A stretch of DNA of 64,000 bases from Candidatus Omnitrophota bacterium (lineage in GTDB: Bacteria; Omnitrophota; Gorgyraeia; Zapsychrales; Zapsychraceae), in assembly GCA_050250375.1 (NCBI GenBank), contig JBFWOS010000001.1:894361-958360 (forward strand). Direction: 5' to 3'. The translations under genes were made by a program, and so were the position numbers. Of the stretch, positions 7,844 to 24,948 are shown in pieces (position 1 is the stretch's first letter; every line of letters begins with the position of its first letter). The notes under the pieces are model-generated. The model was not told where the DNA came from. It was given only the letters and a program-made list of their open reading frames with translations, and did not search any database.

Positions 7844-8572
7844 TTAAGGACAGGCGCGGTTTTCCTTTTGACGAAAAGGCTGCCAATATTCCCGGGCGAA
7901 CTGTTCGGTGTCTTGTCCGATTAAATTTCTCCACCACATCCTGATATCAAAGGCCAATACCCGATAAATTCCACCACTCAAGAAGCGCCGGGCTGATGTC
8001 ACCATGGGTTTTTTGACCAAATATAACCGCCCTACCTTAGAAAGGGCCACGCAAAAATCTGAAGTCTCCATCAATCCAACGTCAGGATAACCTCCGATTT
8101 TAAAAAAGTCTTCCCTCCGAACAAATACTCCCTGATCTCCATAATACCTGGGCCAAATGCGATAACGAATCCGGTTGATGCATTCGACAACCCTGAGGCC
8201 GAATTGCGGTCCATCCAACTTAAACTCGAAAGCTCCTCCAGCGATGCCTTTCTTTGACAATGCTGTAATTATATCCTGATCAAAACCTTCCGGAACTTTG
8301 GAATCCGCATCAAGAAATAGAAATACTTGCCCTTGCGCTATCTTCGCAGCTTTATTCAACAAATAAGACCGTCCCGGAGGAGCTTCAGGGGAGTATATCG
8401 TCGTCACACCAGACCTCTTGGCAATTTCAAGCGTTCCGTCAACCGAACCTCCGTCAGCGACAATGATCTCTTTTAGAATCGAGGTCGTCCCGCACAAACT
8501 GATATTTTTTAGTAAAGCTTCCAAATTTGCAACTTCGTTTAATGCAGGAATGATAATAGATATTTCGGTCAC
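7844..8572 (-). CDS. family-2 glycosyltransferase (GT-A fold)
   Basis: IIIPALNE N-terminus and a DAD motif (FLFLDADS), typical of GT2. Confidence 0.8.
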   Translation of the reverse strand: MTEISIIIPALNEVANLEALLKNISLCGTTSILKEIIVADGGSVDGTLEIAKRSGVTTIYSPEAPPGRSYLLNKAAKIAQGQVFLFLDADSKVPEGFDQDIITALSKKGIAGGAFEFKLDGPQFGLRVVECINRIRYRIWPRYYGDQGVFVRREDFFKIGGYPDVGLMETSDFCVALSKVGRLYLVKKPMVTSARRFLSGGIYRVLAFDIRMWWRNLIGQDTEQFAREYWQPFRQKENRACP

Positions 8573-9726: not shown

Positions 9727-10512
9727 ATGATCCAATCAATTCAAAAAATCGGCTCTTCTACGACTACACTAATTCGTGAAATAGGCAGTATGGGTTGTTT
9801 CTTCCTAACAGCCCTGTTTTATATTTTTACGCCCCCTTTATTATGGAACCGGTTAATCCGGCAGATATATTTTATTGGGGTGAAGACTATTTTGATTGTT
9901 TTATTGACCGGAATGTTTACCGGTATGGTTCTGACCCTGCAGTCCTACTATGTCCTTGTGACGTTCGGGGCAGAATCCAGTCTGGGATCCTTATTATCTT
10001 TATCATTGATTCGTGAAATCGCACCGGTCATCACCGCTCTGATGATCGTCGGTCGGGCCGGTTCGGCTCTGACCGCCGAATTAGGCATTATGAGGATGTC
10101 TGAGCAGATTGATGCCTTAGACGCGATGGCCCTGAATCCGTACAAATATTTGATCAATCCGAATTTAATCGCCGGCATCATCACTTTTCCGATATTGACC
10201 GCGTTCTTTATTATTTCAGGAGTTTGGGGAGGATTTTTGGTGGCTGTCAAATTAACCGGTTTATCCACCGGAATTTTTTTCGGAGCCATGGCTGATTCGA
10301 TCATGTTGAAAGACCTTCTACTGGGGTTATATAAATCCCTAAGCTTCGGATTGTTGGTCACGTCGATTTGTTGTTACAAAGGCTTTTTTGCGGGCATTGG
10401 TTCTGGATTCGGCGCCCAAGGTGTTAGCAAGGCCACAACGGATGCGGTCGTTCTTTCATCAGTCCTTATTCTGGTCTTGGATTACTTTATAACCTCCATT
10501 ATGTTATTTTAA
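9727..10512 (+). CDS. mlaE: MlaE phospholipid ABC transporter permease
   Basis: MlaE/Ttg2B-like permease sequence (IREIAPVITALMIVGRAGSALTAELG) and operon context. Confidence 0.9.
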   Translation: MIQSIQKIGSSTTTLIREIGSMGCFFLTALFYIFTPPLLWNRLIRQIYFIGVKTILIVLLTGMFTGMVLTLQSYYVLVTFGAESSLGSLLSLSLIREIAPVITALMIVGRAGSALTAELGIMRMSEQIDALDAMALNPYKYLINPNLIAGIITFPILTAFFIISGVWGGFLVAVKLTGLSTGIFFGAMADSIMLKDLLLGLYKSLSFGLLVTSICCYKGFFAGIGSGFGAQGVSKATTDAVVLSSVLILVLDYFITSIMLF

Positions 10513-10520
10513 TTCTATTT

Positions 10521-11249
10521 ATGATTGAAATTATAGAGCTTTGTAAAAATTTCGGTAAAAAACAGGTCCTTAACGGCGTTAACCTGAAAGTCAAAAAAGG
10601 TGAAACCTTTGCCCTTATCGGAGCCAGCGGCAAAGGCAAATCCGTCCTATTGAAACACATTATCGGTCTGATCAAACCGGATCAGGGTAAAATTCTCATT
10701 GATGGCCATGATATCAGCGGGATCCACGGCACAAAACTAAAAAAACTCAAAGATCGTTTTGGTGTCGTTTTTCAATTTGGCGCCTTGTTTGATTCGCTGA
10801 CGGTCTATGACAATGTGGCCTTCCCTTTAATTGAAAAAACCCGATTAAGCCCTGACGAAATCCATAAAAAGGTCCTGGAGGAATTAGCCACTGTTGGTCT
10901 ATCCGGTGAAGAAGACAAATATCCGGCTCAAATCAGCGGGGGAATGCGGAAAAGGGTTGCCGTGGCCAGATGTCTGGTGATGAACCCTGAAATTATCCTG
11001 TTTGACGAACCAACGACCGGTCTGGATCCTGTAATCGCCAATTCCATTTATCGCACAATCAAAAAACTTCAGGATCAGCGCAATTTGACCAGTTTTATCA
11101 TCAGCCATGAAATCCCGGGAATTTTCAAGATTGCCGATCGGGTAGCCATGCTGCATGACGGACAGATCATACAAGTGGGAACATCCGATGAGATCCAAAA
11201 CACACAAAACACCACAGTTAAAAAATTCCTCCAGGGGGAAATCGAATGA
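10521..11249 (+). CDS. mlaF: MlaF ABC transporter ATP-binding protein
   Basis: Walker A GASGKGKS, signature LSGGMRKR and Walker B ILFDEPTTGLD. Confidence 0.9.
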   Translation: MIEIIELCKNFGKKQVLNGVNLKVKKGETFALIGASGKGKSVLLKHIIGLIKPDQGKILIDGHDISGIHGTKLKKLKDRFGVVFQFGALFDSLTVYDNVAFPLIEKTRLSPDEIHKKVLEELATVGLSGEEDKYPAQISGGMRKRVAVARCLVMNPEIILFDEPTTGLDPVIANSIYRTIKKLQDQRNLTSFIISHEIPGIFKIADRVAMLHDGQIIQVGTSDEIQNTQNTTVKKFLQGEIE

Positions 11250-11304
11250 ACCCTGGACATGAATATATCATTCCGCAGTCAATTAGATCGAAAGGTAGGA
11301 TAAA

Positions 11305-11742
11305 ATGAAAAAAAGCACAATCGAGGTTATTGTTGGCCTTTTTATTATTACTGGTTTAATGGCTATGGGTTATATCTCCATAAAACTGGGAAAGGTCGAT
11401 TTTTTTAACCGAAATTATTATTCCTTGAATGCGACCTTTTCAACGGTCGCCGGTCTCAAAAAAGACACAAATATCGAAATTGCCGGAGTTCCGATAGGTA
11501 AAATCAAGGATATACAGCTTAAGGATTATCAAGCCATTGTAACACTCGACATCAAAAACGGTATCGTCATCCAGGATGACGCGATCGCCTCTGTCCGCAC
11601 GAAAGGGCTTTTAGGCGAAAAATATATCGAAATACTTCCTGGCGGTTCAAATGTTATACTTAAAGCAGGGGATGAAATCTTTGATACCGAGCCTCCGTTT
11701 GATCTGATGTTGGTGATCAAGAACCTGGCGGTTGGTGATTAA
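11305..11742 (+). CDS. mlaD: MlaD (MCE-domain) protein
   Basis: N-terminal TM segment plus an MCE domain. It sits in the mla operon. Confidence 0.85.
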   Translation: MKKSTIEVIVGLFIITGLMAMGYISIKLGKVDFFNRNYYSLNATFSTVAGLKKDTNIEIAGVPIGKIKDIQLKDYQAIVTLDIKNGIVIQDDAIASVRTKGLLGEKYIEILPGGSNVILKAGDEIFDTEPPFDLMLVIKNLAVGD

Positions 11743-11764
11743 AGTCAAAAAGGATTATCATAAT

Positions 11765-12373
11765 ATGAAAAAAACCACTTTTCTTCCCTTATTCACTTTG
11801 ATAGTTTTGAGTTTATGTTCCCCATCCATGTTATGGGCTGACGACACCCCAGGCCAATTGGTGATTAACACCATTAATCAAGGCATGCAAATTCTCAAGG
11901 ATCCGGAACTAAAAAATCCTGATCAGCTTGAAATACGCCGTCAAAAGCTGTGGGAAATCTTAGAACCGATATTTAGCTTTGAAGAGGTGTCTATGCTTGC
12001 GCTCGGTCGCCATTGGCTCGATTTAAATCCAAACCAGCAGAAAGAATTTACCGATTCATTCACAAATATCCTCAAAGATATATACTTGAAAAAATCTGAC
12101 GACTATCAGGACGGTGAAATCATTTATGTCCGGGAAATCGTCAAGGGAACTCGCAGTAAAGTACAAACAAATTTTGTCAAAGGCGGCAAGAAAATCGTCG
12201 TCGATTTCAGCATGAAGAAAATTGATAACGTCTGGAAAATTTACGATATCACGATTGAAACCGTTAGCGTTTTAACCAATTATCGGACACAGTTCAACAG
12301 CATCCTGGCAAAATCATCTTTTGATGAATTGATGGCAAAATTACGAAAAAAAGAAATCGAAGTTTCGAACTAA
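11765..12373 (+). CDS. mlaC: MlaC/Ttg2D periplasmic phospholipid-binding protein
   Basis: Signal peptide after the internal Met MKKTTFLPLF. The MlaC-like sequence ends ...WKIYDITIETVSVLTNYRTQF. The ORF track starts at 11732, overlapping mlaD. Confidence 0.8.
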   Translation: MKKTTFLPLFTLIVLSLCSPSMLWADDTPGQLVINTINQGMQILKDPELKNPDQLEIRRQKLWEILEPIFSFEEVSMLALGRHWLDLNPNQQKEFTDSFTNILKDIYLKKSDDYQDGEIIYVREIVKGTRSKVQTNFVKGGKKIVVDFSMKKIDNVWKIYDITIETVSVLTNYRTQFNSILAKSSFDELMAKLRKKEIEVSN

Positions 12374-12380
12374 GCGAGGT

Positions 12381-13175
12381 GTGATGATGAAAACGATGAT
12401 AATTTGGCTGGCAGCATCTTTCTCGATGGTTTTAATGGTGGAGCTTGGGCTCCTTGCAACCGCCCAAGCCGCGGAGTACGCAAAAACTTCCAAATCGGCT
12501 CCCCTTGATCATTTTGATGTTGATGAAGATATTGATTTCTACGAAGAGAATATAACCATTAACGACCCCTTTGAAGATTACAATCGTTTCATGTTTAAGG
12601 TCAACGACTGGGTCTACAGACGCCTTTTTAACCCCATCGCCAAAGGTTATGATTTTGTAGCCCCTAAACCCGTTCAGAAATGTTTCGACAATCTGTTTGA
12701 AAACGCCAAATCAACGATCCCTTTCTTTAATAATTTATTCCAAAAAAAATACAAAAACGCGGCAACGGTGTTCGGTCGTTTTACCGTCAACTCTACGATC
12801 GGAATCGGCGGGTTGTTTGATCCGGCTCAGAAATATCTGCACTGGTCGGCTTATGATGAAGACTTTGGACAAACCCTCGGATATTACGGAATGAAAACAG
12901 GCCCTTACATTATCCTTCCTCTTCTCGGTCCTTCAACCGGCCGTGATGTGCTTGGGTACATCGGGGACAGGGCGTTAAACCCGTTTACCTGGATTGGCGT
13001 TTATGATGTCTATCCGGAAGAAGTATTCGAACATCTGCCTTATCTGCAATACGTCAATGCCTACGCCTATAGACAACGGGAGAATTACGAAGCTGTAATG
13101 GACGGAGCCATTGCCCCATACGCAGCGCTTCAGAATTTTTATGTTCAAATCAGGGAAAGTAAAATAAAAGAATAG
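12381..13175 (+). CDS. mlaA: MlaA/VacJ outer-membrane lipoprotein
   Basis: VacJ-like core: NDPFEDYNRFMFKVND...GIGGLFDPA...GPYIILPLLGPSTGRD. Confidence 0.85.
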   Translation: MMMKTMIIWLAASFSMVLMVELGLLATAQAAEYAKTSKSAPLDHFDVDEDIDFYEENITINDPFEDYNRFMFKVNDWVYRRLFNPIAKGYDFVAPKPVQKCFDNLFENAKSTIPFFNNLFQKKYKNAATVFGRFTVNSTIGIGGLFDPAQKYLHWSAYDEDFGQTLGYYGMKTGPYIILPLLGPSTGRDVLGYIGDRALNPFTWIGVYDVYPEEVFEHLPYLQYVNAYAYRQRENYEAVMDGAIAPYAALQNFYVQIRESKIKE

Positions 13176-13177
13176 TA

Positions 13178-13855
13178 TTAGGGGGAAACCAATTCGGTGA
13201 CGTCTCCATCGGGAGATTTTCGCCGGATAAAAAGCCCGTCAGATTTGCGGTAATAATAAATTCGTTTGTAGTATTTTGACCATTTTCCAGCCGCCGAATA
13301 ATCAATTTTAACCGCCTCAACGTCCTTGCCGTTAATATTAATCGTCTCAACGCCTTCTTTATGGGCCTGCATAAGATACTCTTTTAGCTGGTCCTTGCGT
13401 AACATCCAGAATTCCATATCTGTTTCACCGGACAACACAAATTTTGTCAGATTGAATTTGGGCGTGAAATAAAAAGGTTTGTCATCAGGCAATACAATGG
13501 TTTCTTCTACCGGAGCCCCTTTGAGCATACCTTTAACCGTAATGATTTTTCCATCCTTTGTCCCGGTATAGTCGGTTTTCTCCCCTTCATCTGTTGAGGT
13601 CCATTCGACCGTCTGAAAATCTCCGTCCAAGACGAAATCTTCGTCTTCTTCCATTCTCTTACCCGTAAATTGGCGGGTATATTTTTTCTTACCGCCGGGA
13701 AGTTCATCTACCGTCAAGCTGTATTCATTGATGGTCTTTTTCGTCCGGGGGTTGTAGGTCTTATATAAATAAACCTGTGATTGGGAATAAGCACTGCTTA
13801 CACTCCATAACAAAGAAAGCAGCACACTTAACGTAGTTATAAAATATCTTTTCAT
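13178..13855 (-). CDS. secreted hypothetical protein
   Basis: Signal peptide MKRYFITTLSVLLSLLWSVSSAYSQ. No recognised domain. Confidence 0.5.
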   Translation of the reverse strand: MKRYFITTLSVLLSLLWSVSSAYSQSQVYLYKTYNPRTKKTINEYSLTVDELPGGKKKYTRQFTGKRMEEDEDFVLDGDFQTVEWTSTDEGEKTDYTGTKDGKIITVKGMLKGAPVEETIVLPDDKPFYFTPKFNLTKFVLSGETDMEFWMLRKDQLKEYLMQAHKEGVETININGKDVEAVKIDYSAAGKWSKYYKRIYYYRKSDGLFIRRKSPDGDVTELVSP

Positions 13856-13866
13856 GAGGGTTTTCT

Positions 13867-14628
13867 TTATTGTTTGGTTTGGATGGATAATACCGTATCT
13901 GAGAGGTCTTCAGTTACCATTCTTTTGGATATATATATGACATAATAAGTTAATCCGACCGAAGCCAATAAGCCGGCCCATAACATGACCCATTCAAATG
14001 TCACCCGCGTCTGGTTTGCTCCATCTATCCCGGATGTGTACCCGACCAGATAACCTAGATACACATAGAGGAATGTCGTCGGTAACCGTCCGATAAATGA
14101 AGCCAAGATAAAATCCTTGGATGACATCTTGGTCACACCGCAGATGTAGTTTAAAAACATGGCATTCGCTACCGGGATATTCCTGAGTAATAAAAGCATT
14201 TTCCATCCGTCTTTTTCAATCATTTCATCCAGCTTCTTCAATGACTCATTGTTTTGTATTTTCCTGTTAATTGCATCCTGGAACAGATATCTGGCCATCA
14301 GAAATTTAATAAATGATGAAATGGTCGCGCCAATGGATACCAGCAATACGCCTTGAAACACACCGAATATCGTACCGGCAAAAACCCGGAAGACAACAGA
14401 AGGAATAAATATACCCGACATAAAAATATAGAGAACAACAAAAAGAACCGAGGTCCAGAATCCGAGATGGTCAATTCTGTCAAATATCTGCTGGACGTAT
14501 ATATTCCCCTGGAAATGTTTCGCCAACCAAACAAACAATACAGAGAACACACCCACCGCCAAACACTTAAGGTTGATGTCCCCGTCGCCTCTAATTTTTG
14601 TTATTAAACTGTTTATTATCATTATCAA
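13867..14628 (-). CDS. TVP38/TMEM64 (DedA-like) family membrane protein
   Basis: Multi-TM protein with a VFAGTIFG...G..S.GA..S region typical of the SNARE-associated/DedA superfamily. Confidence 0.7.
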   Translation of the reverse strand: MIMIINSLITKIRGDGDINLKCLAVGVFSVLFVWLAKHFQGNIYVQQIFDRIDHLGFWTSVLFVVLYIFMSGIFIPSVVFRVFAGTIFGVFQGVLLVSIGATISSFIKFLMARYLFQDAINRKIQNNESLKKLDEMIEKDGWKMLLLLRNIPVANAMFLNYICGVTKMSSKDFILASFIGRLPTTFLYVYLGYLVGYTSGIDGANQTRVTFEWVMLWAGLLASVGLTYYVIYISKRMVTEDLSDTVLSIQTKQ

Positions 14629-15469
14629 AAACCTTGATCCCTAAGCGGTGCAACTCCGCATAGATTTTCTTCAACTCATCTTCTTTTGATCCGAATTCTT
14701 TTTTTCTCGATTCGTCTAACTCAATCTTCGCCAATTCATAGTCAATCGGTTTGTCCACATCAACTCCCATTTCGGCAAAAGGCGAAACAAAAATTTTCAC
14801 CTTTGTGTTCAATTTCTTAGACAAAACCTCCGCGATTCCGGGAAAATCTTTTCCTTTGCAGCCTATATGCTCCAAAATCTTAACAGGGTCTTTTCGATAA
14901 CTTCTTAAGATGACAATATCGCGAAGGACATTCTTTAAAACACGGAAATGTTTAACATAATAGATATTCGACCCGGTATATTTCTCGCCAGCCACAGGCA
15001 TATAACTGCGGTTTTCCACCGGGAATCCGGATTTCGCCAATGTCTCTTTTTGAACATAATGAAAAACCAATCCTGGGTTATGATGATCAATATTTTCTAT
15101 GGTCGAATCAATAATTTCGGTCGTTAGATAGGCCGCATCACAAAAGGAAATAAGATAACCATTATGCCGGTTAGAAAATTTATAAATCGCCGTCTTGACA
15201 TAAATAATTGCGCGTAAGAGATTCTGAATGAACGATTTCCCTTCCGGAATTCTTTTGTAAACATACTGCATGGAAGCCAGTTGATCCAATTCTTTTGATC
15301 CGACAACCACAATCTTGTCAATATATCGGCTTTTACGATAAGCGTCAATGACCCGTCCCAGCATCGGCTCACCATTGATCGGCAAAAAGGCCTTTCGGGT
15401 GTACCCGTACTGGTCACACCAATTTTCATTTTCTCCACCGGCTAATATAATTAGATTGTATTTTTTCAT
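14591..15469 (-). CDS. MobA-like / sugar-phosphate nucleotidyltransferase family protein
   Basis: N-terminal LIILAGGENE...FLPINGEPML, a nucleotidyltransferase motif. The C-terminal half is unassigned. Confidence 0.65.
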   Translation of the reverse strand: MKKYNLIILAGGENENWCDQYGYTRKAFLPINGEPMLGRVIDAYRKSRYIDKIVVVGSKELDQLASMQYVYKRIPEGKSFIQNLLRAIIYVKTAIYKFSNRHNGYLISFCDAAYLTTEIIDSTIENIDHHNPGLVFHYVQKETLAKSGFPVENRSYMPVAGEKYTGSNIYYVKHFRVLKNVLRDIVILRSYRKDPVKILEHIGCKGKDFPGIAEVLSKKLNTKVKIFVSPFAEMGVDVDKPIDYELAKIELDESRKKEFGSKEDELKKIYAELHRLGIKVFDNDNKQFNNKN

Positions 15470-15639
15470 AAATTATGCCTAATTTTTATGCAATTCAAGA
15501 TTTAATTGATTTACCCTAAATCGAAAAATGATTAAGGAATACTTATTTTAACTAAATTGTAAAAAAAATCAATATTAATTATTCCTATAGTTAAATTTTT
15601 CTATTTTTCTTAAGTCATTATATATCAATATATTATATT

Positions 15640-15655
15640 ATGTTGATATCAACAT
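15640..15655. promoter_or_regulatory. 16-nt perfect palindrome ATGTTGATATCAACAT in an AT-rich leader
   Basis: Perfect inverted repeat within a 380-bp AT-rich intergenic region upstream of the plus-strand gene at 15849. Confidence 0.3.
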
Positions 15656-15848
15656 ATATTAAGAACCTTGTGAAAAATGTGAATTTTTATTAATTAATTT
15701 CATAAACGAGGCAATTTATCGCTTAATTGCTTTCCCTAATTTGGTATAGTTAATAAGCCCTATAAAAGAACAAAATTTTAACAAGACAGAAATGCTCTGA
15801 TATGATACTGTCATTAAAACCACTTTCAATTCAAATTAAAGAGGCATA

Positions 15849-17717
15849 TTGCCAATTGTTTATATCATGCCTGGATCAACGATGAAAAGAAAGCAGTATC
15901 AAATTATTATCGCGATAGCCCTATTTACCATCTCCAGGGTCTCTTATATTTTCTTCCTTAAAGATACGGATATCGCATCAAACCAAAAAATCATTGAATC
16001 TCAGTATATCGGATTGGTCGCCAAACATCTACAGGAAGGCTTAATCATGCCGTTCTGGGATTATCAATTCAGCAGTTATGATGGCGGCACTCTTATAACT
16101 GGCCTGGTTTTAGCGCCGTTCTTCCATTTGTTCGGGCAAAGTTCCTTCACACTATCTTTCTATGCCCTGATTATTTCTTTGATTGTGTTCTTAATCTGGT
16201 GGCGTTTCTCCCATATATATTACGGTGAACGAATTGGACTGTTTGTGGCCATGCTCTTTATTTTCGCACCGCCGATTCATATAAAAGCTAACGGCGTTGC
16301 TTCCGGTAATCATATGGAAATCAATTTCTTCGTTTCCCTCGTAGTTTTCTTTTTCTATAAGATCTTTTTCTTCTTCCAATCCAAAAACAATCCACTCAAA
16401 AGATTTAAATCATTGGATTTTATTTTTCTGGGATTCATATCCGGTTTAGGCGTATATTTTTGCTATTCGTTAGGACTTGTCTTGTTGACTTGCTTTCTGT
16501 TTTGGATCACGATTGATAAACAGCCCTTTAAAAATTATCATTATCTTCTTCTAGGATGCTTTTATGTTTTAGGCTTCAGTTTTGCCTTTCCGCGCTTACC
16601 TGTTTTTAACTCTTTAATTATCGCCGATATATTCAGCCAATGGCCGTTGTCAAACTTCGCATCATTCGGCGAACGTTTTACCGGCGTAATAACCAAACAA
16701 CTTCCCCCATTAATTGCCGTGGCAAGCCCTCTTCATATTCTAACCTTTTACATTTTCTCAATTTCTTTCTTATTTTTACTCTTCAAAAACCTAAAAACTC
16801 TGGGTCGACAGCTGATTGTTTTGGCCCAGCCGAAATTCCAAAGACTAAATTTCGACCATTCCATCAAAAATAACTTTATCCTGCTATTTCTAATGATCTA
16901 TATCCTCACATATACTCTGAGTAATTTTAATACTTATCTGGAATTTGAAAGCCCCATACGGCACCGTTATCTTCTCCTCTTGTATCCGTTCATTTTTATT
17001 GTTATAGCCGAATCCTTAAATAGCCTGTATCTATGGAAAAATCCTCTCGGAAAGCGTTTAACTGTTTTGTTATTTATCTATTTCTTTATCGCGTCAATTC
17101 ACGGCACACTAAGACAACTTGACTTTAACAACGCCAAACAAAAAATTATCCGGCGTTTTACCGAAGACGGGTTTTCCCATGAAATGCTGGGAACAGTTAT
17201 ATGTTCCAGATTTGGAGGTTTCCCGGAAAAAAGTCTCCCATTATTGAATAGCGTCAAAAATATATACATACCCGAAATGTATCGGGGTTTCGGTTATGAA
17301 TTTTCCATGATGGATTATCACAATCTAAAAGAGTATAAGAAACTAATCGTGTCAAAACCCTATCAAAAAGAATTTTTAAAGGGAATTGATTTGGGAAGAG
17401 TCACAAATGAATATTTCAAAGGAACCGATGTTGACCGCGCGTATTTAGCCGATGTTATGGGTTACGGAGCCTGCCAGGAACCGGAAATGATCGGCAACAG
17501 GCTGCTTTCATTACTGGATCCGGTAACCGTTACTGACAAATCTCAGTACTATAAAGGGATCGGGATGATTTTAGCCATTCAGTGTGATATACTAGATGAT
17601 ACCGAGTTTAAGTTTATTAAAAAAATCGATTCAAAATATTACCAGGCCTTTTATGAAGGTGTTGGTGAGGGCCGCAAGTACAATCTCAACATTTTATCTA
17701 TATTAGGCACCCCTTGA
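15849..17717 (+). CDS. polytopic membrane protein, possibly GT-C/ArnT-PMT-like
   Basis: About 12 predicted TM helices followed by a soluble C-terminal domain of about 200 aa. No firm family call. Confidence 0.55.
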   Translation: MPIVYIMPGSTMKRKQYQIIIAIALFTISRVSYIFFLKDTDIASNQKIIESQYIGLVAKHLQEGLIMPFWDYQFSSYDGGTLITGLVLAPFFHLFGQSSFTLSFYALIISLIVFLIWWRFSHIYYGERIGLFVAMLFIFAPPIHIKANGVASGNHMEINFFVSLVVFFFYKIFFFFQSKNNPLKRFKSLDFIFLGFISGLGVYFCYSLGLVLLTCFLFWITIDKQPFKNYHYLLLGCFYVLGFSFAFPRLPVFNSLIIADIFSQWPLSNFASFGERFTGVITKQLPPLIAVASPLHILTFYIFSISFLFLLFKNLKTLGRQLIVLAQPKFQRLNFDHSIKNNFILLFLMIYILTYTLSNFNTYLEFESPIRHRYLLLLYPFIFIVIAESLNSLYLWKNPLGKRLTVLLFIYFFIASIHGTLRQLDFNNAKQKIIRRFTEDGFSHEMLGTVICSRFGGFPEKSLPLLNSVKNIYIPEMYRGFGYEFSMMDYHNLKEYKKLIVSKPYQKEFLKGIDLGRVTNEYFKGTDVDRAYLADVMGYGACQEPEMIGNRLLSLLDPVTVTDKSQYYKGIGMILAIQCDILDDTEFKFIKKIDSKYYQAFYEGVGEGRKYNLNILSILGTP

Positions 17718-17733
17718 TTTGAGAGGATGACGA

Positions 17734-19344
17734 ATGAAAGTAACATTTGTATACACGGAAGATGAAAGCCTTGGGCTACAATATCTTTCCGGCATCCTGA
17801 AAAAACATGGTCACCAAACCGAATTAATTTTCGATCCCGCCCTTTTTAATGACAATATCCTTCCTATTAAACCATTAAGTAAATTCTTCAATTTTGAAGA
17901 CCAGATTGTTGAAGACATTATTGATTCCAAACCTGACATCATCGGTTTTTCTCTTCTAACGGATATCTATCCCTGGTTTCGCCGTATTGCCAGTAAAATA
18001 AAAAAAATGACAAACATACCCATTGTTGTCGGCGGGATTCATGCGACCAGCGTTCCAGATATCGTTATTCAAGAAAACTTTGTTGATTTTCTAATTGTAG
18101 GAGAGGGCGAGTTTCCTCTTTTAGAACTCATAAACCGTTTGGAAGGGGATCGCGACTTTGAAATGGTCCCGTCGCTTTGGTACAAAAAAAATGATGAGGT
18201 CAAAAGGACAGCCATTCTCCCTAAAATAACGAATCTTGATGAGATTCCTGTCCCTGATAAAGATTTGTTTTATGATAAAGCCCCAATGTTTCAGAAAAAT
18301 TATTTTATTGAAGCCGCACGGGGTTGCGTTTTTAAATGCACCTTTTGCCACCACTCCATATCTAAAGATATTCCGCAAACAAAACGCAGTTACCGCATGC
18401 GCAGCGTCAAAAGTGTTATTGATGAATTAAAGATGGCAAAACAAAAGTATAATATCCATAGCGTCTATTTTACGGATGAATTATTTGCTCTTGATATGGA
18501 TTGGATGCGGGAATTTGTTCCGGCTTACCGAGAACAGGTTGGACTTCCTTACAGCTGTTCGGTCTACCCATCGATGATGGATGAAGAACGAGTCATTCTC
18601 CTTAAGAATTCCTTCTGTTTTGGAGTCGAAATGGGCGTTCAGACAATTAACACAGATTTAAAAAAGCAGCTCAATCGCTTTGAAACAAATGCCCGTGTCG
18701 AAAAAATTATTGGACTTCTAAAGAAACACGGAATACGGGTCTATACCCAAAATATCATGGCTTTGCCGGGGGAACGAGAGGAACACCTGAAGGAAATGCT
18801 TGAATTTTATACTCGCGTCAAACCGACCGTTTCTTTCTTTTTTTGGCTGCGTTACTATCCCCGGACCGCTGTGGTGTCAGATGCGCTAAAAATGGGAATT
18901 CTGACCCAGGATCAGGTTCTTCAGATTGAAAAAGGTGAAATAACGGGCGGCATTAATACCGGTGGCACTTTTTTAGGCAAATATGCGGATAAATATTTCC
19001 TTGTTCTTAACTTATCAAAATATTTACCCCTGGGTTTTGTCCGTTTCCTGATCCACAGAAACCTAATCCGCTTTATTCCTGTGCTCCCCCTGCGCTCAAT
19101 CAATATGGTTTTTATTTTCTTTGCCCAGCGATTTACCGAATTTCTGCCCTCGAAATACGGATCAAAAATCTACCGGTTTAATCGTGATATCGCCCGTTAT
19201 CAACATTATATCTTCCGCAAAATTTTCTCGTTGGGAAGGAAGAAAAGAAACAATCCGGAAACAAAAATTTCAGAGATGAATACGCTTTTAGAACCGAAGG
19301 TGTATGTGGGGCCTCCTGAAAACATCCTGCGGGTCAAAGCTTAA
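17734..19344 (+). CDS. B12-binding-domain radical SAM enzyme
   Basis: N-terminal cobalamin-binding-like region (PDIIGFSLLTD...VVGGIHAT) and a radical-SAM cysteine triad ARGCVFKCTFC (Cx3Cx2C). Confidence 0.85.
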   Translation: MKVTFVYTEDESLGLQYLSGILKKHGHQTELIFDPALFNDNILPIKPLSKFFNFEDQIVEDIIDSKPDIIGFSLLTDIYPWFRRIASKIKKMTNIPIVVGGIHATSVPDIVIQENFVDFLIVGEGEFPLLELINRLEGDRDFEMVPSLWYKKNDEVKRTAILPKITNLDEIPVPDKDLFYDKAPMFQKNYFIEAARGCVFKCTFCHHSISKDIPQTKRSYRMRSVKSVIDELKMAKQKYNIHSVYFTDELFALDMDWMREFVPAYREQVGLPYSCSVYPSMMDEERVILLKNSFCFGVEMGVQTINTDLKKQLNRFETNARVEKIIGLLKKHGIRVYTQNIMALPGEREEHLKEMLEFYTRVKPTVSFFFWLRYYPRTAVVSDALKMGILTQDQVLQIEKGEITGGINTGGTFLGKYADKYFLVLNLSKYLPLGFVRFLIHRNLIRFIPVLPLRSINMVFIFFAQRFTEFLPSKYGSKIYRFNRDIARYQHYIFRKIFSLGRKKRNNPETKISEMNTLLEPKVYVGPPENILRVKA

Positions 19345-19587
19345 TCCCGCTCTTTTCTGCCGGATTTTAAACTTTCTAGAATTGTGTAATAGCCTGAAAA
19401 AAAATACTTGCGGCGCCAGAAAAGTAGCAAAAAAATCCGGCCATCCTCTTTTTCAAAACATCCTGTTTCTCCCTAATGCTAGAAAAAATTATACTTGTTT
19501 ATTGCCACCGTTACGTCTGTTCCCAGAAAGTATTTTCTTGGGATATTACCGAATTCTCATGATTATGTGATAATATAAAAAAATATT

Positions 19588-20832
19588 ATGACTGAACATT
19601 CCCCATCCCATCAATCGTTAATTAAGAAGTCCGTTTTTACAATCCTCCTTTTGTTGTTAATCCTTCTTTTGGTGGAAGGGATTTCAGCCGTTGGCATCGT
19701 TTACTTGAGAAAAAAGAAAAACCAGGAATACCGTCCGGCTATAAAAAACAAACTTACCAGCCTGCAAAAAGAAAACTTATTAAAGCTAATCAATCATGAG
19801 GAAAAGTATGTGACGCACAGCCCGATCCTCGGATGGACCATCAAACCCAACGGGACAGCCGACCTCTATCAGGCGAATTCCCAAGGTATCCGGGCGGATT
19901 CGGATTATAGCGCATACCCTGCGTCTGATAAGATACGAATCGCCACCTTCGGGGATTCATTCGTCCATTGTGATGAAGTCAAAAACGAGGAAACCTGGCA
20001 AGTACACCTTGACAGCTTTGATCGTCATCTGGAAACGATTAATTTCGGTGTTGGCGGGTACGGGACAGACCAGGCCTATTTGCGATATCTTGAAGACGGA
20101 CGGAAATTCCACCCCGATATAGTTCTCATCGGATTTATGACAGAAAACCCTATCCGAAACCTTAATACATTCCGGCCCTTTTATCTAGCGGCAACGGGAA
20201 TGCCGTTATCCAAACCGCGATTTCAGTTGGCTGGTGATCACATCCGCCTAATTAATAACCCTTTGAACAGTCTCAACGAGTATCAAAAGCTCCTGAACAA
20301 TGAAAGCAAAGTATTGTTGGAGTTAAGCAAAAATGATTACTTCTATAATTACCATTATGCGGAACATCCTATGGACTTTTTTCTGGCGGTCCGCCTTACA
20401 AAAATTCTCAGATATATTTATCTTAAACCAAAAGAAAAGATATTCAACAAGCTGGAATACAACACGAATTCTGAAGTCTATACCGTTACAGCCGCGATCG
20501 TCGAAGAATTTTATAACTCAGTAAAGAACGACGGTGCGACCCCCGTCCTTGTCTTTATCCCGAACAGCGGTGACTTTGGCCGGCTTAAGGACCACCAAGC
20601 CAAAAATTATAAACCGTTCATGGATAGGATGGACCGTAAAGGAATAAAATATATCGATTTTACCGCCGATCTGCTGAACGACATCCTTACCGATGAACAC
20701 CCTGAATCTTTTTTTGCTCCGGATTATCATTTTTCATCCAAAGGCAACAAATACGTAGCCAAATACATTTATCAATATCTGAAAGAAAATCATTACTTAG
20801 ACCGGCCCAAAACACCTCCCGCCAGTCCATGA
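19588..20832 (+). CDS. membrane-anchored SGNH/GDSL-like hydrolase or acyltransferase family protein
   Basis: N-terminal TM segment, FGDSF (block I Ser), GVGGYGTDQ (block II) and a C-terminal D.H. It is a paralogue of the next gene. Confidence 0.65.
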   Translation: MTEHSPSHQSLIKKSVFTILLLLLILLLVEGISAVGIVYLRKKKNQEYRPAIKNKLTSLQKENLLKLINHEEKYVTHSPILGWTIKPNGTADLYQANSQGIRADSDYSAYPASDKIRIATFGDSFVHCDEVKNEETWQVHLDSFDRHLETINFGVGGYGTDQAYLRYLEDGRKFHPDIVLIGFMTENPIRNLNTFRPFYLAATGMPLSKPRFQLAGDHIRLINNPLNSLNEYQKLLNNESKVLLELSKNDYFYNYHYAEHPMDFFLAVRLTKILRYIYLKPKEKIFNKLEYNTNSEVYTVTAAIVEEFYNSVKNDGATPVLVFIPNSGDFGRLKDHQAKNYKPFMDRMDRKGIKYIDFTADLLNDILTDEHPESFFAPDYHFSSKGNKYVAKYIYQYLKENHYLDRPKTPPASP

Positions 20833-22028
20833 AACAAAAAATCTTTATATTTATTCTGATTTTAATCACTCTGTTTATTCTTGAGGCCTTTTCATTCACC
20901 GGCCTGGAATTAATCCGGAGAAAAAAACATTTTGTTTACCTGCCCACGACAGAAAACATTTTCTCGGATCTGCAAAAACAGCGCATTCAGAAACTGTTAA
21001 ACCATACCGAACAATACATCACCTATCACCCCGTCCTGGGATGGACGATCAAACCTAACGGGGCTGATCCCTATCACCGGTCAAATTCACAGGGTTTCAG
21101 GGCCGATCAAGATGTGCAACCGTACCCTTCGGATAAAAAAATTCGTATATCCGCTTATGGTGATTCTTATATGCACAGCGATGATGTACAAAATGACGCG
21201 ACCTGGCTGAAGTATCTGTCAGACATTGATCCGACGTTGGAGCCTCTCAATTTCGGGGTCCCCGGATATGGGACGGACCAGTCTTTTCTGCGTTACCAGG
21301 AAACCGGGATTAAATTTCATCCTGATATCGTCATGATCGGTTTCATGAGCGAAAACCCCCGCCGAAATGTCAACGCGTTCCGCCCGTTTTATAACCGCAA
21401 GACGCAGATCCCCCTTTCCAAACCGCGATTTATCCTGGAAGGAACAAACCTGACTTTAATCGACAATCCACTCTCCGAATTAAAAGATTACCAGGAATTA
21501 CTCGACAACCCGAACGAGAATTTATTACGCCTTAGTCGTAATGATTATTATTATCAGTCGAATTACAAAAGAAGTCCGTTTGATATTTCTCAGACAGTCC
21601 GATTATTTAAAGTTCTGAAAATATTATATATTGACCGGTCAGATAAAATAATGAAACGCGGCATATATAATCCGGATTCCAACGCCTTTAAAATCACACT
21701 ATCAATCCTTGAACGTTTCTATAACACTGTCAAGAATGACGGGGCACGACCTCTCATCGTAGTGATCCCAAACAGGTATGATCTCAAGGATCTGATCGGC
21801 CATCCGGGCCGGCGTAGAATTTATAAACCTTATATTGATATGTTCAGAAAGAAAGAATGGTTATACGTCGATTTGACCGATTATTTTCTTGAAGATCCGA
21901 GAAACGATAATGTCGACCAACTTTTTGGTTCGGGAGAACATTTTTCTGCGGAAGGAAACCGCCGGGTGGCGGAATACATTTATCAATTCATAAAGGAGAA
22001 TGGACTCCTTACGAAACGAACAAATTAA
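20829..22028 (+). CDS. membrane-anchored SGNH/GDSL-like protein, tandem paralogue
   Basis: YGDSYMHSDDV, GVPGYGTDQ and GSGEHFS motifs, collinear with 19588-20832. The two genes share a 4-nt ATGA overlap. Confidence 0.65.
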   Translation: MKQKIFIFILILITLFILEAFSFTGLELIRRKKHFVYLPTTENIFSDLQKQRIQKLLNHTEQYITYHPVLGWTIKPNGADPYHRSNSQGFRADQDVQPYPSDKKIRISAYGDSYMHSDDVQNDATWLKYLSDIDPTLEPLNFGVPGYGTDQSFLRYQETGIKFHPDIVMIGFMSENPRRNVNAFRPFYNRKTQIPLSKPRFILEGTNLTLIDNPLSELKDYQELLDNPNENLLRLSRNDYYYQSNYKRSPFDISQTVRLFKVLKILYIDRSDKIMKRGIYNPDSNAFKITLSILERFYNTVKNDGARPLIVVIPNRYDLKDLIGHPGRRRIYKPYIDMFRKKEWLYVDLTDYFLEDPRNDNVDQLFGSGEHFSAEGNRRVAEYIYQFIKENGLLTKRTN

Positions 22029-23212
22029 TCTTTATACGGATCAAATTCATCTTCTCCGGCCATCGCCACGCCGATTGGCTTTAATGTATGCAGAATCCGA
22101 ATGGTATTTTTATGATACGCCAGGACTTCCGGAAGGCGTTTATAACAATGAGGAGATTCATCCGTTCCGGCCCCTCTTAACTCTACTCCCTGCTGATTAA
22201 CCCAGCTCATCATCATCTGGCGTGAAATCTGCCCGCCGGCCCTTTTTCGGCGGATCAAGCGTCCGGCCGCGGCGGTACGCGACATGACGCGCCCGGCCCC
22301 GTGGACCGTGGAATAAAAAGATTTCTGACTCTCATTTGATTCCACCCCCTCAATGATGACCGAAACATCCCCCATGCTGCCGCCGACAAATCCTTTCTGC
22401 CCTACAAAGGCCGGGGTTGCGCCTTTTCGCACAACCCAAAACTTTTCCCCCTGGTGTTCTTCCTGCCAGGCATAGTTGTGATGATTGTGGATCTCTTCCT
22501 GAATATTGGCCCCGATGATTCTGGCAACCCGCCGACAGACCCAGTCGCGTCCGGCATACGCGTAACGGCCGGCCAGTTTCATACAGGCAATATATTCCTG
22601 GCCGAGATTGCTTTTGATGTCCAGTAACACCGGATCGACGTTCATTCCGTCTTTCCCGCCGCCGGCTTTTATAAAATGGGTGGCCAACCGGTGTCCCAAT
22701 CCGCGTGACCCAAAGTGCACCCCAATCCAGACTCTGTCCTGCTCATCCAGAAATATATCAACATAATGGTTGCCGCTGCCTACGGTACCCAGCTGCTCCT
22801 GGGCTAATTTCTTCAGTTTTAATTCTCTGGTCACATCAATGCTCCAGGCCGGATCATCATTGAGCAGGGGATGATCGACGTATTCATTGTTCTTCATACC
22901 CACACCAAAAGAGATGATCCGGTAAATATCATCCATGATCTTCTTGATATGCCGCCGCACCTCTTTGGCCGGGGCATCAAGACGGACAGCCTTATTCCCG
23001 CAGGCGATATCATATCCCACACCGGAAGGACTGACTTTATGGCGATACGCAACAACCCCGCCGATCGGGACTGCGTAACCGGGATGATGGTCAGCCATCA
23101 AGGCGCAATAATCGGCGTCTTTCGAACAGTTCCTGATCTGGGCCAGCGCTTCATCAATAGGTTCACCCCAAACAGGAATATTGTGAATATATTGAACAGT
23201 TTTATCAGCCAT
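22025..23212 (-). CDS. rtcB: RtcB-family RNA ligase
   Basis: Metal and GTP-binding motifs GSGNHY, HNHHNY and HGAGR. Length 395 aa. Confidence 0.9.
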   Translation of the reverse strand: MADKTVQYIHNIPVWGEPIDEALAQIRNCSKDADYCALMADHHPGYAVPIGGVVAYRHKVSPSGVGYDIACGNKAVRLDAPAKEVRRHIKKIMDDIYRIISFGVGMKNNEYVDHPLLNDDPAWSIDVTRELKLKKLAQEQLGTVGSGNHYVDIFLDEQDRVWIGVHFGSRGLGHRLATHFIKAGGGKDGMNVDPVLLDIKSNLGQEYIACMKLAGRYAYAGRDWVCRRVARIIGANIQEEIHNHHNYAWQEEHQGEKFWVVRKGATPAFVGQKGFVGGSMGDVSVIIEGVESNESQKSFYSTVHGAGRVMSRTAAAGRLIRRKRAGGQISRQMMMSWVNQQGVELRGAGTDESPHCYKRLPEVLAYHKNTIRILHTLKPIGVAMAGEDEFDPYKD

Positions 23213-24375: not shown

Positions 24376-24948
24376 ATGCCCAGAACTTTTATTGCCTTTG
24401 AAATTGATCCAGTTAATCAAAAATATCTGGCTAATCTAAAAGACCGTTTAAATTGGGGGAATGCCTCCATCAAATGGGTCAAAGCAGACAATATTCATTT
24501 AACCCTGAAATTCCTGGGTGATCTTTCTCAAAGTCAAATTGACTTAATTAAAGGAACTTTTCCAAAATTATTTACTGATTTTAATCCTGTGGCTGCTGAA
24601 ATTAACCGACTTGGTGCATTTCCGAATAGCAAACACCCGAAAGTCCTCTGGGCAGGGTTAACAGGAAAAATTGAAGCAATATCAGTAATCGTCGCCCGCC
24701 TCGAACAAGAGCTGGAATTGTTAGGTTTTCCAAAAGAACAAAAAAAATTTTCTTCTCATATCACCATCGGCCGGGTCAGATTTGAAAATAAATCGAAGAA
24801 AATCGGAGAAACGCTCCAGTCATTCTGTTTTACGCCGCCATTGCGGCAAAACTTAAATATCATCACGCTTTATGAAAGCACCTTAACCCCGCAGGGTCCG
24901 ATCTATGTCCCGCTGGTTAAAACTGAACTTGCCGATACCTCCCGTTAA
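24376..24948 (+). CDS. thpR: RNA 2',3'-cyclic phosphodiesterase (ThpR/LigT, 2H family)
   Basis: Two H-x-T-x motifs (HLTLKFLGD and HITIGR) in a protein of about 190 aa. Confidence 0.85.
   Translation: MPRTFIAFEIDPVNQKYLANLKDRLNWGNASIKWVKADNIHLTLKFLGDLSQSQIDLIKGTFPKLFTDFNPVAAEINRLGAFPNSKHPKVLWAGLTGKIEAISVIVARLEQELELLGFPKEQKKFSSHITIGRVRFENKSKKIGETLQSFCFTPPLRQNLNIITLYESTLTPQGPIYVPLVKTELADTSR

Follow-up and report, generated by a model that had tools for sequence, protein, structure and literature searches.

The locus analyzed here encodes relatives of several described enzyme classes. (i) GT-C glycosyltransferases of the PMT_2/ArnT/PMT type (GT39/GT83-like) are polytopic membrane proteins, usually with an α/β periplasmic domain. 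One of them, ArnT, belongs to the DedA-dependent Arn pathway, whose three components are the DegT aminotransferase ArnB, the GT2 enzyme ArnC, and the GT-C enzyme ArnT. None of the Arn, PMT, and OST systems is known to include a radical-SAM partner. (ii) Class B (cobalamin-dependent) radical-SAM enzymes include the sugar C-methylases GenK, GenD1, and MoeK5, as well as HpnJ, BchE, and ladderane-type enzymes; radical-SAM modification of the hydrocarbon tails of membrane lipids is known for Grs, Gmm/Hgm, HpnP/R, and the ladderane enzymes. (iii) SGNH hydrolases, such as TesA/TAP, acetyl-xylan esterases, CgnD, and LA_2490, share the SGNH fold and the GDS serine, Gly, Asn, and His blocks, and a membrane-anchored SGNH-type domain is found in an envelope context in AlgI/AlgJ/AlgX, PatA/PatB, and DltB/DltD. 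The present locus comes from Omnitrophota, a group of very small bacteria that have not been cultured and may depend on hosts; its sequence matches the Omnitrophota metagenome-assembled genome GCA_050181705.1.

Organization of the gene row

The window, i.e., the whole stretch of 64,000 nucleotides that was analyzed, has a GC content of 43% and gave no matches in Rfam and tRNA scans. Four co-directional genes on the forward strand encode a GT-C-like, 611-aa polytopic membrane protein (15882–17717), a 536-aa radical-SAM enzyme with a B12-binding domain (17734–19344), and two SGNH/GDSL hydrolases, SGNH1 (19588–20832, 414 aa) and SGNH2 (20829–22028, 399 aa), the latter two overlapping by ATGA, with the start codon at 20829 lying inside SGNH1. 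Only 16 nt, carrying a Shine-Dalgarno-like GAGAGG, separate the GT-C-like stop codon from the radical-SAM start, while the gap between the radical-SAM gene and SGNH1 measures 243 nt; this gap is not conserved, and a search of it for a conserved element found none.

On the reverse strand, divergent from the GT-C-like gene, lies a MobA-like nucleotidyltransferase gene of the NTP_transf_3 family (14591–15469), overlapped by a gene for a DedA/VTT-domain membrane protein (13867–14628, reverse strand; PF09335, 115 bits) whose DedA and UptA matches in NCBIfam are weak. A GT2 gene (7844–8572, opposite strand) is found 7 kb off, past an MlaEFDCA operon. The sequence features listed in the preliminary description, among them the four genes, the ATGA overlap, and the three opposite-strand neighbors, are all confirmed to be present. 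Its proposal that the four products form one pathway tailoring a surface glycan or lipid fared less well. We favor, tentatively and at somewhat below an even chance, reading the region as a mosaic envelope-tailoring locus of three units: an intergenic spacer, a GT-C-like/radical-SAM module, and an independent SGNH pair.

The GT-C-like membrane protein

The description of the first gene product as GT-C-like is borne out by its fold. An AF2 model (pLDDT 82, pTM 0.83) searched against the PDB with Foldseek gave top matches that are all GT-C enzymes (AglB, STT3, ArnT, Pmt4, PglB, and AftB), with probability 1.0 and E-values between 4e-4 and 5e-3, although TM-scores reach only ~0.39. Like PMT_2/ArnT/PMT-type enzymes, the protein is polytopic, with ~11 hydrophobic peaks. 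It differs from them in a PMT_2 score of 21.4 bits, under the gathering score of 26.1, and in having no match in NCBIfam, including its ArnT and PMT models. Remoter members of the family do clear the PMT_2 gathering score (33–37 bits), and in two of these the protein carries a fused PIG-L sugar deacetylase domain. Residues E39, H144, and R362-Y363 are invariant in the family, and E39 may be the counterpart of the conserved acidic catalytic residue that PMT_2-type enzymes have in the first external loop; D60, in the WDYQ motif of that loop, is kept in close members and replaced by Tyr in the distant P0131 and P0252. At the C terminus, in place of the usual α/β periplasmic domain of GT-C enzymes, lies an all-helical repeat domain with Y-x-G-x-G motifs. 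The protein is a candidate divergent PMT_2/ArnT-like glycosyltransferase; the fold and the scores of its remoter relatives speak for this reading, the low PMT_2 score and the variable D60 against it.

The resemblance to the Arn pathway extends to gene context: relatives of the GT-C-like gene adjoin DegT aminotransferases or SDRs or carry the PIG-L fusion, and a DedA gene neighbors the locus in the window. Membership in the Arn pathway was considered and rejected because the locus holds no ArnT, ArnB, or ArnC equivalog.

The B12-domain radical-SAM enzyme

The second gene product was correctly recognized as a B12-domain radical-SAM enzyme: it matches PF02310 at 64.8 bits (cutoff 32.1, residues 12–132) and PF04055 at 81.7 bits, and its cluster motif C198-x3-C202-x2-C205 is invariant in 35 homologues. 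Its relatives in the PDB are AprD4, QCMT, CysS, TsrM, OxsB, and TokK, and, as in the OxsB/TsrM/TokK/QCMT class, a Rossmann domain (PF02310) at the N terminus precedes a CxxxCxxC core and a C-terminal domain. Cobalamin binding is suggested by the Pfam domain; some enzymes with a related domain, AprD4 among them, bind no cobalamin (PMC12931638).

Length and architecture are similar to those of class B enzymes such as GenK/GenD1/MoeK5, HpnJ, BchE, and the ladderane type. What sets the enzyme apart from them is that it reaches no cutoff among the curated NCBIfam equivalogs, QCMT and BzaD included, and that its orthologues at 65% identity or more are restricted to Omnitrophota. The best NCBIfam score is for ApyD (121 bits against a cutoff of 750), followed by TIGR04072 (116 against 360) and PhpK (107 against 600). 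The preliminary description had named membership in a housekeeping subfamily, such as bacteriochlorophyll or hopanoid methylases, as a result that would refute its proposal; the corresponding scores are 97 against 481 bits for BchE, 92 against 578 for HpnJ, and 40 against 650 for HpnR. By profile comparison, the enzyme belongs to no housekeeping or otherwise characterized subfamily, be it BchE, HpnJ, HpnR, or another of the NCBIfam equivalogs.

A lipid substrate has points in its favor. Here the radical-SAM enzyme would methylate, cyclize, or cross-link membrane-lipid tails, with the GT-C-like protein as its membrane partner or as a head-group transferase and no longer as an enzyme of a glycan. 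The second-best family match, TIGR04072, is a ladderane-type lipid B12-radical-SAM enzyme, the C-terminal segment is moderately hydrophobic, and relatives at 35–40% identity occur in arrays with Tes/TrsS-like lipid-type radical-SAM genes. The neighbors include Mla and DedA genes and, beside the orthologue in locus L003, AsmA-like lipid-transport genes; homologues of Mss and Hbs have been reported in Omnitrophota (10.1101/2023.10.20.563219). With regard to these arrays and the Mla/DedA/AsmA-type neighbors, a lipid substrate fits equally well. Yet the score for the ladderane-type family, like that for every other, falls far under the cutoff, the arrays with Tes-like genes are devoid of the GT-C-like family, and the contexts of that family hold sugar enzymes (DegT, SDR, and PIG-L fusions). 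The orthologue in L003 (65% identical), for its part, is divergent from a gene encoding a GT2-FkbM methyltransferase fusion. We consider modification of lipid tails quite improbable.

A recurring GT-C-like/radical-SAM pair

The gene association that recurs elsewhere, as judged from the loci compared, is only that between the rare GT-C-like family and radical-SAM enzymes. For the GT-C-like gene, about five independent contexts could be compared, most of them from related Omnitrophota; radical-SAM genes lie nearby in four of the five and are directly adjacent in three. In the window and in L095, the B12-domain radical-SAM gene starts 16 nt downstream of the GT-C-like gene. In L012, a GT-C-like protein with 48% identity is followed by a different B12-domain radical-SAM enzyme (33% identical). 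The order in L094/L099 is DegT aminotransferase, GT-C-like gene, and two radical-SAM-SPASM genes, with two more B12-type radical-SAM genes in L094 alone, and L010 has two B12-domain radical-SAM genes within 5 kb. The sole context free of a radical-SAM gene is L013. As a background, matches to the B12-radical-SAM profile were found for 11 of 924 ORFs in control loci. Roughly 440 representative clusters belong to the GT-C-like family at E < 1e-30. A metagenome scan for this family returned one locus only, and a search of the published literature for a system joining a GT-C protein with a B12-domain radical-SAM enzyme found nothing relevant.

These counts bear on the possibility that four functionally unrelated genes lie together by chance, with the palindrome described below as a random feature of AT-rich DNA. 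The variation of synteny among relatives agrees with chance adjacency, and so do promoter and terminator counts at the level of shuffled sequence. Against it are the three independent direct adjacencies, to be compared with a background of ~1%, and the presence of the Shine-Dalgarno-like GAGAGG in the 16-nt gap. Pure chance is given little credence here, about as little as the lipid-tail proposal.

Within the favored mosaic, the likeliest role is that an envelope glycoconjugate is tailored by way of a sugar bound to polyprenyl phosphate, while the SGNH pair would act on its own. The analysis shows folds, domains, motifs, and synteny patterns; the substrates and the order of steps given next are inferred, as is a regulatory role for the palindrome. 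The GT-C-like protein would be tightly coupled to the B12-domain radical-SAM enzyme. In the cytoplasm, the latter would alter a sugar, either as such or linked to polyprenyl phosphate, through C-methylation or some other radical rearrangement. The GT-C-like enzyme, working on the outward-facing side of the inner membrane, would then pass this sugar on to an envelope acceptor, for instance LPS or a different glycoconjugate. The activated precursor could come from the neighboring nucleotidyltransferase, and recycling of the carrier lipid could fall to the DedA protein.

A bolder proposal, which we hold to be unlikely, is that the GT-C-like protein and B12- or SPASM-type radical-SAM enzymes form an undescribed module that installs a radical-tailored, carrier-lipid-linked sugar or glycolipid in the envelope of Omnitrophota and other uncultured bacteria, the GT-C-like protein being the one that installs it, or else that the GT-C-like protein is a non-transferase membrane partner presenting lipids to the radical-SAM enzyme. 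A pairing that recurs would be a sign of glycoconjugates or glycolipids in the envelope that bear radical-installed changes such as C-methyl, deoxy, or rearranged sugars, and would suggest a function for one of the many orphan subfamilies of B12-domain radical-SAM enzymes.

The tandem SGNH pair

The third and fourth genes do encode two membrane-anchored SGNH/GDSL paralogues, as had been proposed, with 48% identity between them. SGNH1 matches Lipase_GDSL_2 at 37.7 bits, over the gathering score. Its AF2 model (pLDDT 90) confirms the SGNH fold, with CgnD as the best structural match in the PDB (E = 2e-10), followed by generic GDSL esterases. Blocks I (GDS Ser), II (Gly), III (Asn), and V (His) are all present: G122-D123-S124, N152-F153-G154, and H381 are invariant in 29 homologues, and most homologues keep the E-N of block III. 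In these features, the pair is like TesA/TAP, the acetyl-xylan esterases, CgnD, and LA_2490. It differs from known SGNH hydrolases in its length of ~400 aa, a transmembrane anchor with a near-invariant Glu, and a conserved β-hairpin extension; compared with LA_2490 in NCBIfam, the window protein scores just 24 bits against a cutoff of 325. A further difference concerns the catalytic site, since no Asp ahead of H381, as in a DxxH triad, is conserved. The residues around the block V His read DYH in SGNH1, GEH in SGNH2, and GHY or xHY in most homologues, and a Ser-His dyad is the likely catalytic arrangement on this alignment. The anchor of SGNH1 is N-terminal, and the charge bias around it is ambiguous as to topology.

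A comparison with the O-acyltransferase systems that join an MBOAT protein to an SGNH protein (AlgI/AlgJ/AlgX, PatA/PatB, and DltB/DltD) gives a mixed picture. The membrane-anchored SGNH-type domain and the envelope context are shared, and the window protein has a weak Pfam match (21 bits) to AlgX. Its structural matches, in contrast, are to generic esterases and not to AlgX, PatB, or DltD. No MBOAT partner occurs among the genes scanned beside the pair in the window. Similarly, MBOAT is absent from the 25 commonest families among 101 immediate neighbors of SGNH homologues at 65 loci, where every family is found at most five times. Across 80 species-level loci, no conserved partner (MBOAT, radical-SAM, or GT-C) emerged: a GT-C-like protein accompanies the SGNH homologue in 0/80 and a weak radical-SAM match lies within 8 kb in 6/80. 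The pair would consist of membrane-anchored serine esterases or acyltransferases of a widespread stand-alone family, and it probably acts independently.

Synteny of the four genes in relatives

The preliminary description had the GT-C enzyme, the B12-domain radical-SAM enzyme, and both SGNH acyl-esterases or acyltransferases build one surface glycan or lipid, and it suggested checking the conservation of the block, naming a lack of synteny elsewhere as a result that would refute the idea. This is largely the result obtained. All four genes are found together only in the same lineage (L001/L002). In L006/L007, with a radical-SAM enzyme 76% identical to that of the window and the same flanks, the radical-SAM gene and the SGNH pair are present and the GT-C-like gene is absent; the NTP_transf_3 gene is kept beside the locus in L006, and no remnant of a GT-C-like pseudogene was found in the L006 spacer. 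In the metagenome-assembled genome JACKFL01, the radical-SAM orthologue (L003) and the SGNH orthologue (L014) sit on different contigs, and in L016 the SGNH pair is followed by RtcB, with no radical-SAM gene. L095 has the GT-C-like and radical-SAM genes, with SGNH1 and SGNH2 probably adjacent too. The SGNH genes are syntenic with a downstream RtcB/LigT/methyltransferase block in Omnitrophota, and it is with this block, not with the radical-SAM gene, that the pair appears to travel.

A single pathway would accord with four co-directional, closely spaced genes whose products are all membrane-associated or envelope-type enzymes. The radical-SAM gene also adjoins SGNH1 and SGNH2 in the window as well as in L006/L007 and, probably, L095, and the three may be functionally linked within the lineage. 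But the GT-C-like gene is missing in L006, the radical-SAM and SGNH genes are unlinked in JACKFL01, the SGNH pair stands apart from a radical-SAM gene in L016, the counts over 80 SGNH loci are those given above, and the 243-nt gap is unconserved while the synteny of the SGNH genes is with the downstream block. One pathway for all four genes is improbable, and the row, by this comparison, is a lineage-specific juxtaposition rather than a conserved pathway. As a broad theme, tailoring of surface glycans or lipids still agrees with the gene contexts; the broken synteny speaks against assigning all four genes to it. Neat gene rows in metagenome-assembled genomes can be such juxtapositions, and the unit that merits experiment here is the gene pair, not the four-gene block.

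The AT-rich spacer and its palindrome

The first unit of the favored mosaic is the AT-rich divergent spacer (15470–15881) between the NTP_transf_3 and GT-C-like genes, with a GC content of 23%. Described earlier as a 380-bp AT-rich region, it measures 379 bp between the nucleotidyltransferase start at 15469 and TTG 15849, where the first ORF begins, or 412 bp if the GT-C-like gene starts at ATG 15882, the codon preferred by gene callers and by the family alignment. Apart from the palindrome, a scan for repeats showed weak inverted repeats only. The palindrome had been given as a perfect 16-nt element, ATGTTGATATCAACAT at 15640–15655; that sequence is there, but its true length is 18 nt, TATGTTGATATCAACATA at 15639–15656, which makes it the longest palindrome in the window. 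Palindromes of at least 18 nt occurred in 60 of 200 Markov-1 random 64-kb sequences, i.e., in 30%, in line with a random feature; within the AT-rich spacer alone, the probability is 0.056 for at least 16 nt and 0.02 for at least 18 nt. Taken by itself, the palindrome is only marginally past chance level.

Conservation argues against a random feature. Homology to the L006 spacer is confined to 15532–15662 (80% identity over 133 nt), and the 12-nt core of the palindrome, GTTGATATCAAC, is kept in L006/L007 at a nearly equal distance from the start codon of the nucleotidyltransferase gene (171 nt in L006 and 173 nt in the window). This figure, too, is marginal: all 12 core positions are kept, but within a stretch that is 80% identical overall, so that the chance expectation is ~0.07.

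The spacer holds two promoter-like sites, though sites of this kind are no more numerous in the region than chance predicts. On the reverse strand, TCAACA-18-TATAAT (15617–15646) has its −35 hexamer within the palindrome and faces the NTP_transf_3/DedA operon; it is a match to the consensus only. On the forward strand, TTAACA-17-TATGAT with an upstream TG (15778–15806) stands ~75 nt before the GT-C-like start codon, and the same segment precedes the orthologous gene in L095, with 87% conservation over 39 nt. The palindrome had been taken for a leader element of the four genes; its position does not favor this, as it lies nearer to the divergent operon and overlaps the promoter-like site of that operon. 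If active at all, it would most plausibly serve the divergent NTP-transferase/DedA genes as an operator or promoter element. No further exact copy of the palindrome was found in the window or in 99 fetched loci except at orthologous positions, and the same holds for the exact 12-mer core, which has a single copy in the window and is confined to orthologous positions in the fetched loci. Matches with up to two mismatches are enriched, with 12 found against 3.3 expected, and are mostly intragenic.

Gene Organization and Conservation of the Locus

The four genes, encoding a GT-C-like membrane protein (15882–17717, +), a radical-SAM enzyme (17734–19344, +), and two SGNH proteins, SGNH1 (19588–20832, +) and SGNH2 (20829–22028, +), all run in the same direction. 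The mechanical ORF start of the first gene is a TTG at 15849; the ATG at 15882 is preferred by gene callers and the family alignment, giving a protein of 611 aa. Its stop codon lies 16 nt from the radical-SAM ATG, with a GAGAGG motif in between, while 243 nt separate the radical-SAM gene from SGNH1, and the SGNH genes overlap by ATGA. The co-directionality and the overlap agree with the preliminary description, which suggested that all four genes serve one surface glycan or lipid tailoring pathway, a reading we consider unlikely given the following locus comparisons.

In two fetched loci (L006 and L007; radical-SAM protein 76% identical), the radical-SAM gene and both SGNH genes are kept, and the flanks match those in the window: MlaC, MlaA, a 225-aa gene, DedA, and NTP_transf_3 to one side; RtcB, DUF2490, LigT, and a methyltransferase to the other. 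Both loci lack the GT-C gene; a 520-bp AT-rich spacer occupies its position, and no remnant was found there. In locus L095, a GT-C-like gene (82%) adjoins the radical-SAM gene (88%). In loci L003 and L004 (65%), the radical-SAM gene is solitary, divergent from a GT2–FkbM methyltransferase fusion, and has an AsmA-like gene after it; in the corresponding MAG JACKFL01, an SGNH1 orthologue (58%) sits on a separate contig with downstream Band_7, LigT, and methyltransferase genes and no radical-SAM gene beside it. In locus L016, VWA/PEP-CTERM and AraC genes precede a tandem SGNH pair, followed by RtcB and LigT. Finally, the GT-C-like family occurs in 0 of 80 species-level loci with SGNH homologues. 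These comparisons show that the four-gene block is not a conserved unit, contrary to the synteny expected of it; gene order groups the SGNH genes with the block downstream of them. The RtcB RNA ligase gene (22025–23212, −) has 51.5% GC versus ~42% in its neighbors, and a LigT-like 2′,5′ RNA ligase lies at 24376–24948 (+). RtcB, LigT-like, DUF2490, and class I methyltransferase genes form a block syntenic with SGNH gene(s) in L006 and L014–L016.

The SGNH Pair

SGNH1 and SGNH2 are 48% identical, in line with their description as tandem SGNH/GDSL paralogues. Their family, ~400 residues long with more than 841 matches in many phyla, has an N-terminal TM anchor and invariant GDS, N-F-G, and His elements; the Asp is not conserved. 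The SGNH1 model (pLDDT 90) best matches CgnD, then generic GDSL esterases, and its structural search returned no match to AlgX, PatB, or DltD. The charge bias flanking the anchor helix is ambiguous as to membrane side. A near-invariant Glu, E30 in SGNH1 (about 19675–19677), lies mid-anchor and is also found in homologues. A weak radical-SAM match falls within 8 kb in 6 of the 80 SGNH loci. Among 101 immediate neighbors, Epimerase is the commonest Pfam family (five occurrences), radical-SAM, PMT_2, and GT2 occur twice each, and the 25 commonest families include no MBOAT family. SGNH1 and SGNH2 probably act independently.

The GT-C-Like Protein and the Radical-SAM Enzyme

Each of the four proteins can be placed in a known superfamily but not in a characterized family. 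The GT-C-like protein matches PMT_2 below threshold (21.4 bits versus a cutoff of 26.1). Its AlphaFold model, made with 11 homologues, is confident (pLDDT 82, pTM 0.83), and all significant Foldseek PDB matches are GT-C enzymes (AglB, STT3, ArnT, Pmt4, PglB, AftB, and ALG9; probability 1.0, TM-score ~0.39), upholding the initial assignment. The first external loop carries an invariant E39 and a WDYQ motif, other invariant residues include H144 and R362-Y363, and all-helical repeats make up the last 180 residues. Just 11 relatives came from a word-indexed search; the full profile search gave 2075 representative clusters, 441 below 1e-30, some members of which exceed the PMT_2 threshold. Two members of the broader family (P0278 and P0287) are fusions with a C-terminal PIG-L (GlcNAc deacetylase, sugar deacetylase) domain, which points to a putative amino-sugar substrate for the family.

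A Candidatus Omnitrophota MAG (GCA_050181705.1, contig JBFXCX010000003.1) encodes a protein 100% identical to the radical-SAM enzyme. Both domains of the proposed B12-radical-SAM enzyme were detected (B12-binding, 64.8 bits; radical-SAM core, 81.7 bits), with an invariant CxxxCxxC. Comparison with known subfamilies, also suggested in the preliminary description, left it below every NCBIfam cutoff (score/cutoff: ApyD 121/750, ladderane-type 116/360, PhpK 107/600, BchE 97/481, HpnJ 92/578, HpnR 40/650). Distant PDB relatives are AprD4, QCMT (9CCB), CysS, TsrM, OxsB, and TokK. Orthologues (65–88% identity) are confined to Omnitrophota, and the next relatives fall to ~40%. Remote relatives (35–40%) sit in arrays of 4–9 B12-radical-SAM genes that include GT2, Wzx, Caps_synth, YfhO, LPG_synthase_TM, and Tes/TrsS-like radical-SAM (PF23545) genes, and from which the GT-C-like family is absent. 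These large clusters, from a metagenome contig (L009), a Muirbacterium MAG (L096), a contig whose radical-SAM protein NCBI names Herbinix sp. (L097), and another MAG (L098), appear uncharacterized. The Tes-like genes, together with nearby lipid-transport genes and the Mss/Hbs homologues reported in Omnitrophota (10.1101/2023.10.20.563219), would favor a lipid tail as the radical-SAM substrate, which we nonetheless judge distinctly unlikely.

Recurrent Pairing of the Two Genes

The GT-C-like family adjoins radical-SAM genes in several independent settings, including the window and L095. In locus L012, a GT-C-like gene (48% identical) precedes a B12-radical-SAM gene (only 33% identical to that of the window) in a different neighborhood. 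Loci L094 and L099 share a DegT aminotransferase, a GT-C-like gene, and two radical-SAM–SPASM genes; L094 adds an SDR and two more B12-type radical-SAM genes, and in L099 a DUF3108-like gene separates the GT-C-like gene from the first radical-SAM gene. Locus L010, from the MAG with the identical radical-SAM protein (contig JBFXCX010000004.1), encodes a GT-C-like paralogue (46% identical) with two B12-radical-SAM genes 1.8–4.8 kb away on the opposite strand; other neighbors are a Phenol_MetA_deg outer-membrane protein, a CsoR-like repressor, and an RND efflux system. At L013, which carries the orthologue of this paralogue, radical-SAM genes are absent and glycan genes are found instead. In control loci, 11 of 924 ORFs (1.2%) match the B12-radical-SAM profile, so direct adjacency in three of five contexts is unlikely by chance (rough binomial estimate, about 1e-4). 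As a reading of the locus, fortuitous adjacency seems quite improbable. No description of the pairing was found in the literature searched.

We tentatively propose, at somewhat under even confidence, a mosaic locus in which the GT-C-like/radical-SAM pair forms a functional unit that would tailor a carrier-lipid-linked sugar and install the tailored sugar on an envelope acceptor. Contexts with sugar enzymes (DegT, SDR, the PIG-L fusions, and the GT2–methyltransferase fusion) favor this reading, and the adjacent NTP-transferase (14591–15469, −) and DedA (13867–14628, −) genes fit it. DedA proteins have been linked to the recycling of undecaprenyl phosphate; the NCBIfam UptA model, whose name bears on this role, matches weakly here.

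The AT-Rich Spacer and Its Palindrome

The reported AT-rich leader, extending from the divergent NTP_transf_3 start codon (15469) to the first gene, has 23% GC versus 43% for the window. Its palindrome, ATGTTGATATCAACAT at 15640–15655, is present and grows to a perfect 18-mer (15639–15656), the longest in the window. Palindromes of at least 18 nt arise in 60 of 200 Markov-1 random sequences of window length; within the spacer by itself, the probabilities are 0.056 for at least 16 nt and 0.02 for at least 18 nt, so that significance against chance is marginal. Homology to the L006 spacer is limited to 15532–15662 (80% identity), where the 12-nt core GTTGATATCAAC is intact at an equal distance from the NTP-transferase start. 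Besides orthologous positions, no further copies of the core occur in the window or the 99 fetched loci. Two promoter-like sites, TCAACA-18-TATAAT on the − strand, with its −35 hexamer overlapped by the palindrome, and one at 15778–15806 (+), conserved upstream of the L095 orthologue, are leads only because such sites are at shuffle level overall. The window holds 12 matches to the core with two mismatches versus 3.3 expected from shuffles, three of them clustered within 160 bp inside one gene (58050–58213).

Other Genes in the Window

A complete MlaE-MlaF-MlaD-MlaC-MlaA phospholipid-transport operon (9727–13175, +) lies immediately upstream, and an unannotated 225-aa signal-peptide protein (13178–13855, −) is encoded between it and DedA. 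HMG-CoA reductase, an enzyme of the mevalonate pathway, is also encoded in this Omnitrophota genome (3649–4920, −; PF00368, 393 bits), with PPK2 (4972–5796) and photolyase (2222–3601) genes next to it.
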